From a virus (lineage: Duplodnaviria > Caudoviricetes): 64,000 nucleotides of DNA. Of this stretch, positions 8,461-32,543 are shown one piece after another (positions within the stretch are counted from its first letter, which is position 1; each line of letters opens with the position of its first letter). The notes under the pieces were generated by a model that was not told the origin of the DNA, did no database searches, and worked only from the letters and a program-made list of their open reading frames with translations. The translations under genes and the position numbers were made by a program. The DNA lies in IMG/VR virus record IMGVR_UViG_3300013382_000007, positions 32,001-96,000 of that record; one strand, written 5' to 3'.

Positions 8461-8847
8461 ATGAAACCATTATTTCCTAAACAAAACAAGAAAAAGAAAC
8501 GTGAGACTGTTAAACAGGCTCGTAAAAAAGAAATTAAGTTTCTTGATGTCATGATAATCTGTATTCTAATATTTTTGCTTATATTTATTGCTGTGACTAC
8601 ATATATGTCTTATAAGACTATGTATGAGCCTACAACACTTATAGCATCTGTATTTGCCTTTTGTGGTCTTGAATATGGTTTAATGTCAAGTATCACAAAA
8701 CGTAAGATGGTGTTAAAAGACAGAGATTATGGCATTAAAAAGAATGAAAATAATAATACTCCAATAGAGATTCCTCCTACCATTGATGAAAGCTTATTGA
8801 ATCAATCTATAGTTGATGACAATAATAATAGCAATGAGGTTCAATAA
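8461..8847 (+). CDS. Two-TM membrane protein, holin-like
   Basis: Basic N-terminus, two TM helices (FLDVMIICILIFLLIFIAV; LIASVFAFCGLEYGLM) and a charged C-terminus. Confidence 0.55.
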   Translation: MKPLFPKQNKKKKRETVKQARKKEIKFLDVMIICILIFLLIFIAVTTYMSYKTMYEPTTLIASVFAFCGLEYGLMSSITKRKMVLKDRDYGIKKNENNNTPIEIPPTIDESLLNQSIVDDNNNSNEVQ

Positions 8848-9776
8848 TGGCAGATGAGAAAAAGGTTAATGGCGGTATAAACAATCCATTTGCTGGCAAT
8901 AGAATGCCAGTTATCTCATCCATAACAGATTTTGCTGGTAACTTAAAGCCAGGATTCATGGCTGGATTTACTGGATCCAGTATGTATACAGATAAAAATG
9001 GTATTGAAAGATCTCGTTTTTCAAGATCATATGGCGGACTAAGAGGTACTGTATTTAATGCCAGTATTGATAAAGAAACTGGTTCTACTAAATGGAGTCC
9101 TCAATTTTCTGTTGGTGGTACATTATCTGCTGGATATGGCGCAGTTGGTGGAGCAATAAGCGGCGCAGCAATTGGAGCAATTTCAAGTAACTTTCTTGAA
9201 GGTGGTAATATGATTCAAAATGCTGCTGCCGGAGCTGCTATAGGTGGCGCTGCTATAGCTGCTGCGCCATTTGCTCTTGGTATGACTGCTAAAGCCGCTG
9301 TTAAAACATTGCAAAACTCTGATAAAATATTTGCTGGCATAGGAACTGGCGCTGCTAAAGTTGCTGGTACAATAGGAATGACAGTAAAAGGCGCAGTTTC
9401 CAATACAGCACGAGCTGCTATGATTGGAAATCTTGAAGGTAAGGTAGCTGGCAATATAGCGAAAGACGTTTTGAATCCACTAGATAGACATGGCAAAGCA
9501 CTATTAAATGTAGCTGGTAAAATGATTAAAAAGAATCCTGGTAATAATGCCGATGGTATTATATCTGATTACAGTCTGTCTGGATTTGGCAAAGCTATGG
9601 TTATTGGTGGATCTCTTGTAAAAGGTGCCAAAGATGCATTCAATACTTATATGAATAGTAAAGTCGGTCAAAGAGATGGTTATATAAGTTCTATGACTCC
9701 ACAGATCAGGCTTGCAGATAACGCTGGTGCAACTGGAGATCTTGTTTTTGCACTTAATAATAATAGGAGAGGATGA
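8847..9776 (+). CDS. Glycine-zipper Gly/Ala-rich protein (putative virion/ejection protein)
   Basis: GAVGGAISGAAIGA and AAAGAAIGGAAIAA glycine-zipper segments; coupled to the previous gene by TAATG. Confidence 0.7.
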   Translation: MADEKKVNGGINNPFAGNRMPVISSITDFAGNLKPGFMAGFTGSSMYTDKNGIERSRFSRSYGGLRGTVFNASIDKETGSTKWSPQFSVGGTLSAGYGAVGGAISGAAIGAISSNFLEGGNMIQNAAAGAAIGGAAIAAAPFALGMTAKAAVKTLQNSDKIFAGIGTGAAKVAGTIGMTVKGAVSNTARAAMIGNLEGKVAGNIAKDVLNPLDRHGKALLNVAGKMIKKNPGNNADGIISDYSLSGFGKAMVIGGSLVKGAKDAFNTYMNSKVGQRDGYISSMTPQIRLADNAGATGDLVFALNNNRRG

Positions 9777-9785
9777 TAATACAAT

Positions 9786-10223
9786 TTGTCTGTAATTGGT
9801 AAGATAATTAAAAATGAAAAATTAAATATCGGAGACTTAGCTGGTATCGGTCTTAATATTGGATTTGGTATAGCAGATTATAAAGAAAATCGTCAGCAAG
9901 GCAAGAGTAAGGGAATGGCTGTTGCCGGAGCAGTCGGAGAATTTGCTATCGGTGAAATGCTTGGTGGCGGAGCTATGTTTGCTATCAACGCATTACAAAC
10001 TGTTCCCACACTTGCTGTATCAGCTGCTACTGGATTAAGTCAAATGAGTAGACAACAGGCAAGAAATAGATATGGATCAAGTATGCCATTTTATAATGCT
10101 ACTTTTAGCGATACACAGCAAGCATATACAATGAGACAGGCTGGAATGCAATTAGCTGAAAGATCTAAATATAATTTACAGCAGTCTTTAATGGGGAATG
10201 AAGCAGCAATGCTTCATATGTGA
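9786..10223 (+). CDS. Gly/Ala-rich putative virion protein
   Basis: TTG start after AGGAGAGG; hydrophobic Gly-rich helices. Confidence 0.7.
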   Translation: MSVIGKIIKNEKLNIGDLAGIGLNIGFGIADYKENRQQGKSKGMAVAGAVGEFAIGEMLGGGAMFAINALQTVPTLAVSAATGLSQMSRQQARNRYGSSMPFYNATFSDTQQAYTMRQAGMQLAERSKYNLQQSLMGNEAAMLHM

Positions 10224-10229
10224 TTAATA

Positions 10230-10883
10230 ATGACATTAAAAAACTTATTTTCCATTATTAGACAAGCAGATAATGATACTATTTTAGAAACTGCAAAAAA
10301 AATTGGATGCTCTTCAAATAACGTTAAAATCGGCAAAGCTGCTAAAAATTTTATGCTACATAAAGATAATTTAACGGCTGTTCCATCATTTACAGATCAT
10401 GGTCGTGCCGTTGGTAAGGCAAGAAGTGCAAAAATAGCACTGCAAGGTCATAAAACTATAAATCGTGGACAACATATTACACGCCAACAAGTGTATCACA
10501 TGTATTCTAATAATAGACATGCTGGCATGCTTGAAGATGCTTATAATACATTCAATGATTTTGGCCGAAATGCAAATCCTGCTAATAAGCGCTCGTTGCA
10601 AAAAATGGCAAGATCAAAAGAAGATATACAAAATATATTGGAGTCTGAATCCACTAAACATAGCATAAATGATTTAGCAGCAAAACATCAAAAATATACA
10701 ATGCAAAAACAATCTGGCAAAAAAACTGCTGAAACAATTGGTAAGTCATTATTAGATAAAGCTGCTGATATGAAAATACCACAAATAGCATTAGGTGTTG
10801 GCGTAACAGCTTGGCTTGTAAATAAACTCTCTGATTCCAGAGGGCAACAATCTAATGGTCAATTGTATGGACAAGGATATTAA
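10230..10883 (+). CDS. Basic protein with C-terminal hydrophobic helix (hypothetical)
   Basis: 217-aa ORF; C-terminal IPQIALGVGVTAWLV. Confidence 0.7.
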   Translation: MTLKNLFSIIRQADNDTILETAKKIGCSSNNVKIGKAAKNFMLHKDNLTAVPSFTDHGRAVGKARSAKIALQGHKTINRGQHITRQQVYHMYSNNRHAGMLEDAYNTFNDFGRNANPANKRSLQKMARSKEDIQNILESESTKHSINDLAAKHQKYTMQKQSGKKTAETIGKSLLDKAADMKIPQIALGVGVTAWLVNKLSDSRGQQSNGQLYGQGY

Positions 10884-10886
10884 TAT

Positions 10887-11093
10887 ATGGCGAATAATAT
10901 TCAATTAAGCAAGCAAGATGCTGAGAGACTAAAGACTATATTAAGCGATCCTGTAATGTGGGCTCAGGTCTTTGTTGTTACATATGACTCTTCTCTAAAA
11001 AAATATACACCTTGGACAGCAAGATGGTATCAAGCAGAAATGCTTAGAGATAATTCTCTTAAAAAAGTTGCACGTTGTGGAAGACGAACGGGT
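10887..11093 (+). CDS. terL: Terminase large subunit, exon 1
   Basis: RWYQAEML (adenine-binding Q motif) and the first half of Walker A, CGRRTG; joining to 12633 restores CGRRTG|KTETM. Confidence 0.92.
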
Positions 11094-11310
11094 AAAGTTT
11101 TGCCCATATGCCCCGAAGTGCTGGAAGTTGCTTAAGCCTGATATACTCTGAATTATTATAATTCAAGTAATAATTATCAGGATTGCTTAATCAGCAGCGA
11201 AGCATTAGTTTGCATAAAACTAATGTGTGCTCAGAGACTACCTACAAAGTAGGCATATATAGTAGAGATATTATATATGGGCGAGGCACTTTTATATTTT
11301 ATAGAAAGTA

Positions 11311-11338
11311 TTGAAAAGTATCTGTATCTTAATATAAT
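11311..11338 (+). promoter_or_regulatory. SigmaA/sigma70-like promoter inside the intron P8 stem
   Basis: TTGAAA (11311-16), 16-nt spacer, TATAAT (11333-38); GAGGT RBS at 11346 and ATG at 11361. Confidence 0.65.
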
Positions 11339-11360
11339 CATATACGAGGTACATATAATA

Positions 11361-11834
11361 ATGAAATTTAGTATTATTCGTGATCTTAAAGATGAAAACT
11401 ATGCCGTAAAAATCACGCTTGATTCTTTTGGTTCTGAAGATATGTCTAAAGAAGCAGAGTTAAAACTGCTTGACGACCATGGTCCTGCGGAAGTCAATAT
11501 TGGCGGTAAATTCGTAGGTAAATGGTCTGATGGCGAAGTTAAACTTGGCGAACCATTACCTGAGGAAACAGAAGCAGTTAAGCTTGATTTTGTCCGCAAT
11601 TATGAAACCGTAACTATTGATGAAGGCTTTGCTGTTACCTATGAAATCAAAGCAGATTCAATTATTATGACAGACAAACTCACTGAAGCATTTGGTAAAA
11701 AGAATAAGGTTGCAGAAGCTAAGGCTGAACTGTTTGTCGCAGTTATGAAGCAGCGTCTTACTAATGCTATAACAGCTTGGAAAGAGCTTGCAACTGACTT
11801 TGATACGCAGAATCCTGAAGAGTTTGTTATCTAA
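11361..11834 (+). CDS. Intron-encoded hypothetical protein 1 (no homing endonuclease motif)
   Basis: ATG 11361 has a GAGGT RBS; the track start at 11277 lies in the ribozyme core; acidic 157-aa protein; no LAGLIDADG, GIY-YIG or HNH motif visible. Confidence 0.85.
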   Translation: MKFSIIRDLKDENYAVKITLDSFGSEDMSKEAELKLLDDHGPAEVNIGGKFVGKWSDGEVKLGEPLPEETEAVKLDFVRNYETVTIDEGFAVTYEIKADSIIMTDKLTEAFGKKNKVAEAKAELFVAVMKQRLTNAITAWKELATDFDTQNPEEFVI

Positions 11835-11874
11835 AATATATAGGTCAATTAAAATAAGAAAGGTTACTATATAA

Positions 11875-12465
11875 ATGCAACTCAAATTCAATAAAACTAT
11901 AAGAAAAAATATTGTAACCGTTGATTTAGAGGCAATCAAATTTACTCCTAGAGAAATGGAAGCATTTTTCAGATTTGGAGAGCCTGTTATCTCTGTAGAA
12001 AAGATGTATCCATTAAATGATGAGAATGCGTCCTTCCCTGTTAAGTTTTCTAAGAGATTGCGTCCTTCATTCAGACTCAGAGTTAAATTTGATGGCACAC
12101 ACGATGTTGAAGCAGCATGTTTAGCGGCAGAAAGTTTTTACGAAGATATTGTTGAGATTATTCAGGATACTCTTTATGATATCACGGATAAGCTTGATGA
12201 CTCGCTTACATATGACCTTGGTCGTGGTGTAGAAATAATCAGATCTGGAGAGGAAACACTTCCTCAGCAACCTACTAATCCTCCAATGGGATGTGTTCGT
12301 CCTCCATATAAACCAGACTTTAAGCCTGATTATAAACCAGACTTTAATCCTGGCGATCATGTTTGCCCTCCTAAACCATCGGTTCGTCCACCTAAGCCGG
12401 GAAATTGCAACTGTGCAGATGATTCTATGGTTATCTGGACAGATGGCGATAGCGTCCACATTTAA
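11875..12465 (+). CDS. Intron-encoded hypothetical protein 2 with Pro/Cys-rich tail
   Basis: AAGAAAGG RBS; N-terminal domain resembles protein 1; C-terminal PPYKPDFKPDYKPDFNP repeats and Cys residues. Confidence 0.85.
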   Translation: MQLKFNKTIRKNIVTVDLEAIKFTPREMEAFFRFGEPVISVEKMYPLNDENASFPVKFSKRLRPSFRLRVKFDGTHDVEAACLAAESFYEDIVEIIQDTLYDITDKLDDSLTYDLGRGVEIIRSGEETLPQQPTNPPMGCVRPPYKPDFKPDYKPDFNPGDHVCPPKPSVRPPKPGNCNCADDSMVIWTDGDSVHI

Positions 12466-12632
12466 CATATAAATATAATTTTTTGATGCATCAATACTTT
12501 TCAATACTTATTTAGTTTTTATAGAATATAAAAGAAGATATAGTCCGAACATTCAGGGAAAGCCTGAAGAGATAGGCAGAAATGACCTATCCTCAATATA
12601 AAGATAAAAAATTATATTGAAGTAACAAACTG

Positions 12633-14204
12633 AAAACTGAAACAATGTGTATAGATATGTTGCATAATGTATGTACTAAACCAAACTTTGTATGTCTTGT
12701 TGCAACACCGTATGAAAACCAAATTCGATTAATTTTTACCAGATTAAAAGAATTAGTCGACTGTTCTCCTAAAATAAAGGCATCAGTTATTAAGTGCACA
12801 CAGAGTCCATATAATATGACACTTAATAATAACTCACGTATACTCGGATTTACTACTGGAGCTGCAAGTAACTCTGGTGCAGCTTCTCTTCGTGGTCAGA
12901 AGTGCGATGCTTTATATCTTGACGAGATGGATTATATGGGGGACTCGGATTTTGACACTATAGCAACTATAGCAGCAGAGCGTCCCGATATTACAATGTT
13001 CATCTCCTCTACGCCTACTGGTGCAAGAAAGAAGTTCTATGAATGTTGTACCAATAAAGATCTCGGATATAAAGAATTTCATTTCCCTTCTTCATGTAAC
13101 CCTAACTGGGGTCCGGAGATGGAAGCAGAATTCAGATCTCAGCTTTCTGATCAGGGATATATACATGAGATTGAAGCAGAATTTGGTACTGAGGAAGCAG
13201 GCGTCTTTAATAAGGATAATATAGATTTGGCAAGACAAATGGATTATTATGCTTATAATAAACTTGATATGCTTCAAGAATCTCAGTGTCAAAAAGAAAA
13301 CTGTTATCCTACTATGCTTCTATATGATGAAGAGCATCCAGCTCCATTTAACTTATATAGAACAGTAGGAATTGACCTTGATAAATATCAGGCATCATCG
13401 TCTATAGTTGTTACAGAATATGTGCCTGAACTTCAATTATTCAGAGTTCTTAAAAGAGTTGAACTTCCAAAGGCTGAATACTCTTATGATACTGCTTTTA
13501 ATGCAGTGCTAAGTATAAATCAAATATATAATCCAGCATGGATATATTGTGATCGTGGATCTGAAGAGTACTTTATTGAAAAGCTTCATATCTATGGCAA
13601 AGAACATCCAGAGACTGGTCTACATAATAAAGTTAAGGGTTGGCAATTTGCAAATGTCATTGAAGTAGAGGATCCTGTTACTCATGAAGTACAGAAGAAA
13701 CCAATGAAATCATTTATGGTCAACCAGCTAACTATAGCATTTGATAGACATAGACTTATGCTGTCTCCATTCGATGATCTTATATATAGTCAACTTATTG
13801 CTTACACTGTTGAACGTATAGGTAAGAATGGACAGCCGGTTTTCACTTCTACTAACGAACATTTTGTTGACGCGTTAGGTTTATCATATCTTGCTTTTGT
13901 ACTTGAATTCGGTGCATTAGTAAATACGATAAAAGAAGTTGAAAGATCGCATAAAGTAAACATTCTTTCAAAAACTCAAAGTGGTACAGCTCGCCAGATT
14001 AATGAAATGTTCGAATCCGTTAAATCTCCATTTGCCTCTGGTGCCAGAATAAATAAAGATGACGACGATGATCTACCTGGCGACAAACCCCCGAATTATC
14101 AAGTCTATAAAGGATTCGGTACAAAAATAAATAAAAATTCATATGGCTCTTGGGGATCCAGAAATGTTTACAGATCTCGTAATACTGAAAGAACCATATG
14201 GTAA
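12633..14204 (+). CDS. terL: Terminase large subunit, exon 2 (spliced product ~592 aa)
   Basis: KTETM completes Walker A; SLRGQ..LYLDEMDY (Walker B); SSTP coupling motif; RNase H-like nuclease residues in VGIDLDK and HFVDALG. Confidence 0.92.
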   Translation, partial: KTETMCIDMLHNVCTKPNFVCLVATPYENQIRLIFTRLKELVDCSPKIKASVIKCTQSPYNMTLNNNSRILGFTTGAASNSGAASLRGQKCDALYLDEMDYMGDSDFDTIATIAAERPDITMFISSTPTGARKKFYECCTNKDLGYKEFHFPSSCNPNWGPEMEAEFRSQLSDQGYIHEIEAEFGTEEAGVFNKDNIDLARQMDYYAYNKLDMLQESQCQKENCYPTMLLYDEEHPAPFNLYRTVGIDLDKYQASSSIVVTEYVPELQLFRVLKRVELPKAEYSYDTAFNAVLSINQIYNPAWIYCDRGSEEYFIEKLHIYGKEHPETGLHNKVKGWQFANVIEVEDPVTHEVQKKPMKSFMVNQLTIAFDRHRLMLSPFDDLIYSQLIAYTVERIGKNGQPVFTSTNEHFVDALGLSYLAFVLEFGALVNTIKEVERSHKVNILSKTQSGTARQINEMFESVKSPFASGARINKDDDDDLPGDKPPNYQVYKGFGTKINKNSYGSWGSRNVYRSRNTERTIW

Positions 14205-15368: not shown

Positions 15369-15689
15369 ATGGCTGAAACGATTACAACTATAACACCATT
15401 AAACGATAATATCATTCTTGAAGTTAAAAGAGTTGAGCCAGTATCATCTCTAAATGGTATATGGATCATCAATAAAGATGTAAAACAAGATACTAATATC
15501 GCCAAGGTAATCGCTGTCGGAGAAGGTAGATTACTTAATGATGGCACTATAGTTAAACCTAAGGTAAAGGTTGGAGACACAGTACTTTATAATGATTTGA
15601 CTAGTACTATTATAAGTCTTGATGAAGGTAAGTCTGATGATTATATCATAGTCAAAGAAAATAATATACTGTGCACAATAACAGAATAA
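15369..15689 (+). CDS. groES: Co-chaperonin GroES (Cpn10)
   Basis: ITPLNDNIIL...AKVIAVGEGRLLNDG...VKVGDTVLY...YIIVKENNILC matches the Cpn10 signature; GAGAGGA RBS. Confidence 0.92.
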   Translation: MAETITTITPLNDNIILEVKRVEPVSSLNGIWIINKDVKQDTNIAKVIAVGEGRLLNDGTIVKPKVKVGDTVLYNDLTSTIISLDEGKSDDYIIVKENNILCTITE

Positions 15690-30857: not shown

Positions 30858-32543
30858 ATGTCCCAATTAGAAAATATCACACAAACTTATACGTCATTCA
30901 GTGGTGCTGACATGGTTGCTGTGTGTAATATCTTAGGTGAAGACGTTGTTTTAGGAACACTCCAGACAATCAGTTATTCACTTCATATGGAGAGAAATGC
31001 TGTAAGGTCTATTGGTAATATCAATGCAAAAGACTATACTCAAGGCCCACGTACAATAGCAGGCTCTCTTGTTTTTGCTGTTTTTGATAAGCATGTACTT
31101 TATCATATGGCAGAAGCATTTAAATACAACAATAAGTATAAAGATAATAAATATACTCAGCTATATGGTAAGTATAAATCCTTTACTAATAATAGACATG
31201 TATTAGCTGATGAATTGCCGCCATTCAATGTCACAATAACATTTGCAAATGAATATGGTAATAGATCCAAGCTTGCTATATATGGTATCAGATTATTGAA
31301 TGAAGGACAGGTTATGTCTGTCAGCGATCTTTATACCGAAAATACTTATCAGTTTGTCGCGCTTGATATTGACTATCTTTATTCTGGTGATCCACAATTA
31401 AATTATGAAGATGATGACGAATCAGAGGAAATAAAAACTCCTCAGATTAATACATCAAAGAATTATAAGTCTGATGATAGTATAGTTATTGAGCATATAA
31501 ATCATGATTATACAAACAGTCTTAGTTTGATCAATATATCAAAAAAGAGCCTAGACGAAAACGCAAAATTAAATGGCGGTATATTATATGTAAAGCAGGC
31601 GTTGTTAAGCGACGCCCAATGGCACGAATATCCCATACCAAAAAATAATACAAATACGTATCGAGAAACCTTACGCCTTGAAAATGGTGTATATAATGCT
31701 TATTTCATTGAATCTGAAACAGATTTAAAAAGCAATGAAATAACAATAAACATTCATGATGAGGTCAGAGCATTCAAACCGATAATCGAAAATACTATAT
31801 ATCGTAATGGAGAATTATACCTAAAATTCAAGCTCTTCAGTGCATTATACTTTGGACATACAACACTTAATCTTCGCGATTCATCTAAAACAAGAATTAA
31901 GAGTTATGCAATCGATGAAAATTATAATGCATATATTCCATTCTCGGATTTGAAAGATAGCAATAAATATTATCTAGATACAAGTCGCAAAGATAAAGAT
32001 TATAGTTCACTCGAAACATATACTGCTTCACATATATTCGAATTAAACTTCTCTGCTGAGATATTCGATATAATTCAATTTATTCAAAATCATTGGATAC
32101 AAGAATATGAAAGTGAATTATTAATGGTGATAAAAGAATTCTATAATAATCAATCTACATTCTTTTATTCGGCTTGTACCATGATGATTAAATCGCAATC
32201 ATATGCAGACAATGACAGATTCTATTATACATTTTTAAATCGTATATGTGATCTTGAAAATGAATATTTGCAATTAATAAATGGAGAGAATTTCTTACCT
32301 CCAGACAAAACAGACGCAAATGAAATTTATTATCTATCATGTCTCGGTACAGCATATGAAACTAAGAAAGATATAATTGTATCTAATCTGAATCAGATGG
32401 TTGAGTTTGGCGAAGATCCCAAATTCTATAATGTTCCAAGCATTACAAACAATAAACGGTCATACGCTTATTATTATTGTATGATTAACAGATCCACAAA
32501 AGCACTGTCAACTATATTAGGAGGTATCAGACAATATGAATAA
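30858..32543 (+). CDS. Tail tube-like protein 2 with C-terminal extension
   Basis: N-terminal ~175 aa are paralogous to the tube (SFSGAD, GPRTIAGSLVF, DELPPFNVTITFANEYG, YGIRLLNEG). Confidence 0.85.
   Translation: MSQLENITQTYTSFSGADMVAVCNILGEDVVLGTLQTISYSLHMERNAVRSIGNINAKDYTQGPRTIAGSLVFAVFDKHVLYHMAEAFKYNNKYKDNKYTQLYGKYKSFTNNRHVLADELPPFNVTITFANEYGNRSKLAIYGIRLLNEGQVMSVSDLYTENTYQFVALDIDYLYSGDPQLNYEDDDESEEIKTPQINTSKNYKSDDSIVIEHINHDYTNSLSLINISKKSLDENAKLNGGILYVKQALLSDAQWHEYPIPKNNTNTYRETLRLENGVYNAYFIESETDLKSNEITINIHDEVRAFKPIIENTIYRNGELYLKFKLFSALYFGHTTLNLRDSSKTRIKSYAIDENYNAYIPFSDLKDSNKYYLDTSRKDKDYSSLETYTASHIFELNFSAEIFDIIQFIQNHWIQEYESELLMVIKEFYNNQSTFFYSACTMMIKSQSYADNDRFYYTFLNRICDLENEYLQLINGENFLPPDKTDANEIYYLSCLGTAYETKKDIIVSNLNQMVEFGEDPKFYNVPSITNNKRSYAYYYCMINRSTKALSTILGGIRQYE

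Follow-up and report, generated by a model that had tools for sequence, protein, structure and literature searches.

How can a group I intron that encodes no homing endonuclease persist in an essential phage gene, and why should two further genes lie inside it? Group I introns of phages are treated as selfish RNAs that either bear a homing endonuclease or are empty and heading for loss. A different situation is presented by terL, the gene encoding the large terminase subunit, in a 64,000-nucleotide (nt) stretch of a jumbo phage, uncultured and of the class Caudoviricetes (IMG/VR record IMGVR_UViG_3300013382_000007, positions 32,001 to 96,000; this whole stretch is referred to here as the window), in which an intron at 11094–12632 carries two open reading frames (ORFs), ORF1 and ORF2. 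The analysis described here makes it probable that the element is a self-splicing, IA-like group I intron in the P-loop codon of terL, that its P8 region houses conserved paralogous phage genes which stand free upstream of terL in relatives, and that the intron has moved together with this cargo.

The source record comprises 114 kb and is about 48% complete, and the relatives used for comparison are contigs of 200–240 kb. Judged by the terL product, the isolates that come nearest are Moorella phage MTATph1 (42%) and two jumbo phages of Bacillus, Edson and 0305phi8-36; an affiliation with crAss-like phages was considered and dropped because TerL is closer to these three.

The split terL gene and the intron boundaries

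The features that define the split gene are as follows.

10887–11093, plus strand: terL exon 1, 69 codons, mapped with tblastn; reaches the Walker A motif and ends in CGRRTG, the last codon being GGT
11090–11105, plus strand: P1 hairpin, formed by UUGCCC and the GGGU of the exon followed by AA; pairs 3–8/18–23 show covariation
11094–12632, plus strand: group I intron, 1539 nt, subgroup-IA-like, the last base being omega-G 12632
12633–14204, plus strand: terL exon 2, 523 codons, starting with KTETM; matches Terminase_6N and phrog_2

The frame of exon 1 runs 13 codons into the intron, to a TAA at 11133–11135, and exon 2 resumes at 12633 with AAA ACT GAA ACA ATG (KTETM), in frame with a 519-amino-acid (aa) ORF. 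Joining across the intron rebuilds the exact Walker A motif (CGRRTG/KTETM, with the slash at the junction), and the exon junction made in silico reads CGRRTGKTETMCIDMLH, the same as in the uninterrupted terL of the related loci L003, L005 and L022. The 5' splice site lies directly 3' of a U (11093) that forms a U.G pair in P1, in which GGGUAA (11090–95) pairs with UUGCCC (11100–05), and a P10 guide, AGUUUU (11096–11101), can pair with AAAACU, the six bases that open exon 2. The pairing of GGGU with GCCC, including the U.G, is invariant in 7/7 homologous introns.

The ribozyme core

The following elements of the ribozyme were delineated.

11106–11289, plus strand: ribozyme 5' half with P2, P3–P6, the 5' strand of P7, P7.1, P7.2 and P3', identified by the Rfam family RF00028 and compensatory pairs
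11236–40, plus strand: P7 5' strand, GACUA
11241–53, plus strand: P7.1 hairpin
11254–79, plus strand: P7.2 hairpin
11280–89, plus strand: P3'
11289–11321, plus strand: P8 5' arm
12494–12534, plus strand: P8 3' arm
12534–12632, plus strand: ribozyme 3' part with J8/7, the 3' strand of P7, P9, the P9.1/9.2 hairpins and omega-G 12632
12534–46, plus strand: J8/7 and P7 3' strand, GAAGAUAUAGUCC
12550–69, plus strand: P9

RF00028 matched the 5' half at 11106–11289 (20.1 bits, E 0.024, model positions 47–158) and the 3' half at 12411–12569 (23.8 bits, E 0.002), the latter match including GAAGAUAUAGUCC; Rfam searched over the whole window at the gathering score, which is 50 bits for this family, gave no match. 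The homologous intron of L002 matched RF00028 over the full model (38.3 bits), with its ORF placed inside the P8 loop, and that of L026 scored 34.4 bits; a separate, unrelated terL intron in L026 scored 59.5 bits.

Seven homologous introns (those of the window, L001, L013, L016, L019, L017 and L007) were stripped of their cargo in silico and aligned. Their alifold consensus comprised 107 pairs, of which 33 showed compensatory changes in both strands; 43/749 cells in the consensus pairs were non-canonical. The compensatory pairs fall in P1, P2, P4–P6, P7.1, P7.2, P8, P9 and P9.x. Between these genomes, synonymous sites in the adjoining ORFs have reached saturation, so the preserved pairs show that the RNA structure is under selection. 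The P7.1 and P7.2 hairpins, which occupy a 39-nt insert between GACUA and P3' and carry compensatory pairs, point to a subgroup-IA-like intron. In P8, 11289–11310 pairs with 12513–12534 (22 nt, 86%) and 11306–11321 with 12494–12509 (16 nt, 100%). The single match obtained with blastn against the phage collection links 58 nt of the intron 3' core (12535–12592), with 83% identity, to a part of Brochothrix phage A9 that bears no annotation, which suggests that related introns are present in SPO1-like phages of Firmicutes.

Comparative sequence analysis thus confirms 11094–12632 as a real subgroup-IA-like group I intron. A preliminary description of this locus had reported a group I intron in terL with two non-endonuclease genes in P8, and that overall observation is borne out: Walker A is split between CGRRTG and KT, the U.G pair in P1, the P10 guide and omega-G were all found at 11094–12632, and the group I model that it had proposed as a check detects both halves, below the gathering score. 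The long P8 stem is real as well, and slightly narrower than the 11289–11328/12485–12534 originally given.

We propose that transcription of terL would run through the intron and that ORF1 and ORF2 would be translated from their own ribosome-binding sites, on either the precursor or the excised intron RNA. The long P8 stem would clamp the 1.17-kb loop and bring the two halves of the ribozyme together for folding of the core, and guanosine-initiated splicing would then join GGU to AAA and restore GRRTGKT, the Walker A motif. In the stretches examined, the cargo has its sole copy inside the intron; precise intron loss would therefore delete these genes and should be counter-selected, and an intron devoid of an endonuclease would be stabilised in this way.

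The cargo genes

11361–11834, plus strand: ORF1, 157 aa, acidic product with a beta-sheet and a long helix; distant paralog of ORF2 by profile comparison
11875–12465, plus strand: ORF2, 196 aa, N-domain (1–115) confidently folded, Pro/Cys-rich C-terminal tail disordered

Both ORFs are housed in the 1.17-kb P8 loop, each preceded by a GAGG-type ribosome-binding site, and both encode acidic products, with isoelectric points of 4.6 (ORF1) and 5.05 (ORF2), nearly all family members falling between 4.2 and 5.5. The tail of ORF2 ends in a conserved VIWTDGDSVHI. No match to Pfam or PHROG was obtained for ORF1, ORF2 or 58 family members. AlphaFold2 predicts the N-domain of ORF2 (1–115) with a predicted local distance difference test score (pLDDT) of ~90 and the topology beta-beta-alpha-beta-beta-beta-long helix, and ORF1 with a pLDDT of 76 and the same topology. 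Wide searches with both models (Foldseek against PDB and BFVD, and VIA-align) yielded no convincing neighbour (best Z 5.7), the weak ones being generic beta-sheet-plus-helix structures such as ARPC2, capping protein, RaiA and the AP2 domain, and no nuclease was among the structural matches listed for either model. A PDB sequence profile search with the cargo family returned only noise, the protein atlas held no usable match for the cargo, the ORF2 homolog of L022 gave no tblastn match in the phage collection, and complex prediction for ORF1 with the N-domain of ORF2 gave no verdict (score 0.00). The preliminary description was accurate in assigning the two ORFs good ribosome-binding sites, acidic products and no homing-endonuclease motif, and the structure search that it had suggested listed no homing-endonuclease fold among its matches. 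Judging from these searches and models, the cargo proteins are probably acidic alpha/beta proteins and not endonucleases or maturases.

Searched as a Hidden Markov Model (HMM) against 1.84 billion cluster representatives, the ORF2 family produced 76 matches (a count of clusters at 50% identity), 47 of them below 1e-10, mostly 117–140 aa long and un-named. When shallow alignments of the ORF1 and ORF2 families were compared, hhalign showed no relation, a result overturned by deeper alignments, for which it gave 92.7% with an E of 4e-7 over 104 columns; furthermore, the ORF2 HMM repeatedly touches ORF1 N-termini. Therefore, on profile evidence, ORF1 and ORF2 are a tandem pair of distant paralogs. 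The ratio of nonsynonymous to synonymous substitution rates (dN/dS) is 0.03–0.34 for these genes in intronic and free-standing contexts alike, and in the least saturated pair, L013–L016, it is 0.056 for ORF1 and 0.030 for ORF2, values indicating that both cargo genes are under strong purifying selection.

The best promoter-like sequence of the region, TTGAAA-16-TATAAT (11/12) at 11311–11338, overlaps the P8 5' arm just 5' of ORF1. An internal promoter is not conserved among the relatives: TTGAAA is kept at both intron sites (see below) and the −10 box is not.

Arrangements in related phages

To place the window among its relatives, 47 IMG/VR terL loci were classified by tblastn and hmmsearch, and further loci were viewed individually. 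The P-loop position of the window intron is referred to as site 70.

Site-70 intron with ORF1 and ORF2 (the window type): ~11 distinct loci (plus L013, L016, L019 and L026)
Site-70 intron with ORF2 only: 2 distinct loci (L002/L045, L052)
Intron at aa 317 with ORF1 and ORF2, or with ORF2 only: 2 distinct loci (L017/L018; L007)
Free-standing ORF1 and ORF2 directly upstream of terL: 6 distinct loci (L022, L030, L048, L049, L050, L058)
Free-standing ORF2 only, likewise directly upstream of terL: 4 distinct loci (L003/L056, L005, L020, L032)
Neither ORF1 nor ORF2: many loci, namely P-loop intein lineages (L057, L060–75) and L046, L047 and L055, which have a putative small P-loop ATPase paralog upstream

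The intron-plus-cargo architecture is common, being kept in >13 distinct phage contigs of IMG/VR, and all three states that the preliminary description had envisaged for relatives, with the genes free-standing, inside the intron or both absent, were found. In L030, L048, L049 and L058, terL aligns from aa 1–6 with no interruption, and in L050 it is uninterrupted from aa 14. Free-standing cargo is co-oriented with terL, with gaps of 10–60 nt, and many phages have one of the two paralogs. Because the cargo stands free beside the intron-less terL of L030, L048, L049 and L058, comparison of the loci identifies it as the gene pair normally adjoining terL, independent of the presence of an intron. 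To call the intron a gene carrier, as had been done at the outset, is correct inasmuch as it carries genes and too weak inasmuch as these are a conserved pair that normally lies upstream of terL (L022, L030, L048–L050, L058); for the same reason the cargo is not arbitrary, and 'neutral landing pad' is not the best description of the intron.

Identities of ORF2 and the ORF2 tree follow TerL, not the arrangement, and both trees, that of TerL as well as that of ORF2, show intronic loci interspersed among free-standing ones (L054/L048, L045/L056, L031/L022, and L050 versus its sister clade). On these FastTree topologies, which have moderate support, at least five switches or exchanges between arrangements would have occurred. 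No surveyed locus holds the cargo twice, and none combines free-standing cargo with a site-70 intron that lacks ORFs. An apparent duplication of exon 1 in L019 and in the L060 type was rejected as an artefact of in-frame read-through or inteins.

A 17-nt palindrome, AGTCCAACNGTTGGACT, occurs once each in L002 (3267–3283, in the intron 5' half) and in its close relative L003 (2926–2942), where 41 nt separate it from the free-standing ORF2 downstream. The palindrome may be left over from a rearrangement, or it may be a regulatory hairpin common to both loci.

A second site in terL and movement of the intron

The intron of L017/L018 and L007 lies after the GT of Val317 (...MGV/DFDKYQ). It is homologous to the window intron over its full length, with 68–73% identity, which is the range found among site-70 introns, and its 5' half gave local scores of 180–208 with the site-70 introns of the sister clade vs 19–35 with the other introns tested (those inserted at aa 317–321 of terL in further phages, a pair of unrelated terL introns, and distant introns of site 70). 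The P1 guide is the same, GCCC pairing with exon GGGU, and the P10 guide fits the exon that the intron occupies, pairing GAAAUU with GAUUUC at site 317 and AGUUUU with AAAACU at site 70. The two targets have only GGGT/A in common, and GGGT is missing from the unoccupied sites of each lineage.

Given that the targets share just these bases, that the P1 guide is unchanged and that P10 is re-fitted, the comparison suggests that the intron moved with its cargo between terL sites by reverse-splicing-type transposition rather than by means of a site-specific endonuclease; such transposition needs just 4–6 nt of guide complementarity (PMC3984707). We tentatively raise a fuller scenario, possible though on balance doubtful, in which the endonuclease-less intron persists in this jumbo-phage clade by holding a needed gene pair 'hostage' in P8 and was moved with that cargo by reverse splicing from the P-loop site to the second one. 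If true, reverse-splicing transposition in a protein-coding gene would have its clearest natural example here, and a phage intron would for the first time be known to relocate host genes.

Weighing the explanations

The least probable alternative, which we regard as extremely unlikely, is that there is no functional intron, terL being split or dead and ORF1 and ORF2 being ordinary genes between its fragments. It can draw on the missing Rfam match at the gathering score and on the fact that the intron is known from sequence alone, but both ribozyme halves are detected, 33 compensatory pairs are kept next to ORFs with saturated synonymous sites, at each of two sites the P1 and P10 guides match the exons, exon 1 has no function of its own, its junction with exon 2 restores the exact Walker A motif, and the architecture recurs in >13 distinct contigs. 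More substance, although it too seems improbable, has the proposal that ORF1 and ORF2 are a new mobility or splicing factor (a homing nuclease, maturase or recombination mediator) and form a composite mobile element with the intron, as the preliminary description had suggested in speaking of a new maturase or mobility system. The cargo genes are invariably linked to terL, whether adjoining it or lying in introns at two positions of the gene; the interleaving of states on the trees suggests frequent movement; folds with no known relatives may have nuclease activity; and in work on T4 mobE and cyanophage F-CphI, a free-standing endonuclease gene beside its target is said to be a stage in the formation of a mobile intron. 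Against this proposal, the genes also lie beside intron-less terL (L030, L048, L049, L058), the ORF2 tree tracks TerL instead of the arrangement, the proteins are acidic and showed no nuclease, zinc-finger or DNA-binding motif, the dN/dS of 0.03–0.34 in all contexts differs from the usual decay of homing genes, and the 5 nt common to the two target sites are too little for a site-specific endonuclease.

The strict linkage of the cargo to terL leads us to guess at an accessory role in packaging or head assembly, possibly resembling that of the small terminase subunit (TerS). That the cargo actually is the TerS equivalent, so that terS would be nested in a terL intron and both packaging subunits would come from one precursor RNA, is a stronger claim that we consider rather unlikely, if clearly better placed than the two preceding alternatives. 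Free-standing cargo lies where terS classically does, immediately upstream of terL and in the same orientation (L022, L030, L048–L050, L058, L003, L005, L020), with gaps of 10–60 nt; the neighbourhood contains no other TerS candidate, TerS proteins form highly diverse families that frequently escape recognition, and the long C-terminal helix of the models could drive oligomerisation; in crAss-like phages, TerS was inferred from adjacency alone (Yutin et al., PMC7886860). On the other hand, the proteins have no helix-turn-helix, the matches listed by the fold searches showed no similarity to solved TerS structures, some related lineages lack the cargo and many phages have a single paralog, and in Moorella phage MTATph1 and Bacillus phages Edson and 0305phi8-36 the genes upstream of terL are unrelated to ORF1 and ORF2.

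The explanation that we favour, an intron housing and moving with a conserved gene pair, also has to face several observations that weigh against it or against parts of it. The intron and its predicted splicing are known here from sequence alone, and both RF00028 half-matches fall below the gathering score, which we attribute to the 1.17-kb insert in P8. In the relatives, ~4–5 kb on each side of terL were examined, so a second cargo copy elsewhere is possible. The P-loop intein lineages and L046, L047 and L055 are related and lack the cargo, which is lineage-conserved and not universal; it may be essential. No intermediate showing entry of the genes into the intron was seen among the loci surveyed, and nhmmer profiles of the intron halves, which recovered all control introns, detected no relic beside ten free-standing loci. 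Reverse splicing also requires reverse transcription and recombination and has never been directly shown (PMC3984707). A packaging role, in turn, has to be reconciled with the absence of TerS from the structural neighbours and the Pfam and PHROG matches.

Other features of the terL neighbourhood

In many relatives, an intein in place of the intron interrupts the P-loop of terL at this position (CGRR/C...HN/TGKTE), as in L020 (4465–6207), L057 (3037–6081), L060, L064, L066, L067 and L073; as far as these loci can be compared, the P-loop codon of terL is a hot spot shared by introns and inteins. A second terL intron, at about aa 379–381, contains a LAGLIDADG ORF (~280 aa) in L003 (4528–5688) and L005 (6821–8008), that of L005 giving a faint match to LAGLIDADG_3 and that of L003 having motifs recognised by eye. 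Up to four or five terL interruptions occur in other relatives, e.g. L065 and L071.

Directly upstream of terL, the slot lacking ORF1 and ORF2 in L046 (3699–4298), L047 (1174–1692) and L055 (3586–4290) encodes a protein of 170–235 aa with a TerL-like Walker A motif (e.g. VGCRRIGKTT), which may be a small terminase-ATPase paralog. In the window, three Gly/Ala-rich proteins are encoded upstream of terL (8847–10883), and their C-terminal ends, GDLVFALNNNRRG, NLQQSLMGNEAAMLHM and SRGQQSNGQLYGQGY, are conserved in all relatives. The equivalents of these three genes in Bacillus phage 0305phi8-36 are annotated as virion proteins, and these conserved C-termini may serve as signals for processing or docking. 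A Cpn10/GroES-like gene of 106 aa (window 15369–15689), between terL and the portal gene, is likewise kept in all relatives.

Significance

An intron that lies in an essential gene and carries conserved phage genes would have a different route to persistence, since its loss would delete useful genes, and points to an RNA element as a means of re-ordering phage genes. The homologous introns at two terL sites offer a tractable natural system for reverse-splicing transposition, for which support has so far been circumstantial. Genome annotation is affected as well, in that gene callers split terL and mis-place the cargo genes in such genomes. For studies of how jumbo phages package DNA and assemble their heads, the ORF1/ORF2 family, which comprises at least 76 clusters at 50% identity and has no known fold, offers a defined target.

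Comparison with known systems

In the literature searched, no report of a phage intron with conserved non-mobility genes was found, and the closest precedents are organellar. The td, nrdB and sunY introns of T4 encode homing endonucleases, and the DNA polymerase intron of SPO1 holds the HNH enzyme I-HmuI in P8 (PMC3073962). Like these, the terL intron is IA-type, interrupts a conserved gene of DNA metabolism or packaging, and has its ORFs in a peripheral helix (P8, as in SPO1) with their own ribosome-binding sites, the frame of the upstream exon stopping early in the intron. The cargo of the T4 and SPO1 introns is a sporadically distributed endonuclease, whereas that of the terL intron consists of two non-nuclease genes co-diverging with the phage; the sporadic distribution typical of homing endonucleases is not seen, as the ORF2 tree mirrors TerL and dN/dS is 0.03–0.34.

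Insertions in other phages likewise show terL, and especially its P-loop, to be a recurrent target. Phage LL-H reportedly has one. Introns and inteins in terL have been described in Bastillevirinae (PMC11878797), crAss-like phages (PMC7886860) and Jug phages (PMC12880540), where they are ORF-less or encode endonucleases; unlike the window intron, none has been reported with conserved phage genes.

Related group I introns at different positions of ribosomal DNA (rDNA) are circumstantial evidence for reverse splicing (PMC3984707), and as in that case, homologous introns are found here at two positions sharing only the few bases that pair with the internal guide. Unlike in rDNA, a single protein-coding phage gene contains both sites, the intron brings 1.1 kb of coding cargo with it, and P10 is re-fitted to the new 3' exon.

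Among organellar introns, a group I intron of the fungal mitochondrial large-subunit rRNA gene carries rps3 (cited in PMC3073962) and so, like the terL intron, encodes a host gene other than an endonuclease; it differs in having a single gene of known function and in lying in an rRNA gene, whereas the phage intron splits a protein-coding gene. The hexacoral mitochondrial ND5 intron, e.g. of Discosoma, spans ~18 kb and holds 15 mitochondrial genes in P8 (PMC3073962). In both ND5 and terL, the genes found in P8 are ordinary ones of the host that have no relation to mobility or splicing, and intron loss means gene loss. The ND5 intron is organellar, very large and fixed at one position, unlike the phage element with its two small paralogs that are free-standing in close relatives, the variation in arrangement among those relatives, and the presence of intron plus cargo at two sites of the same gene. 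What marks an intron as housing host genes is nevertheless found in terL: cargo in P8, free-standing orthologs in relatives, and purifying selection.

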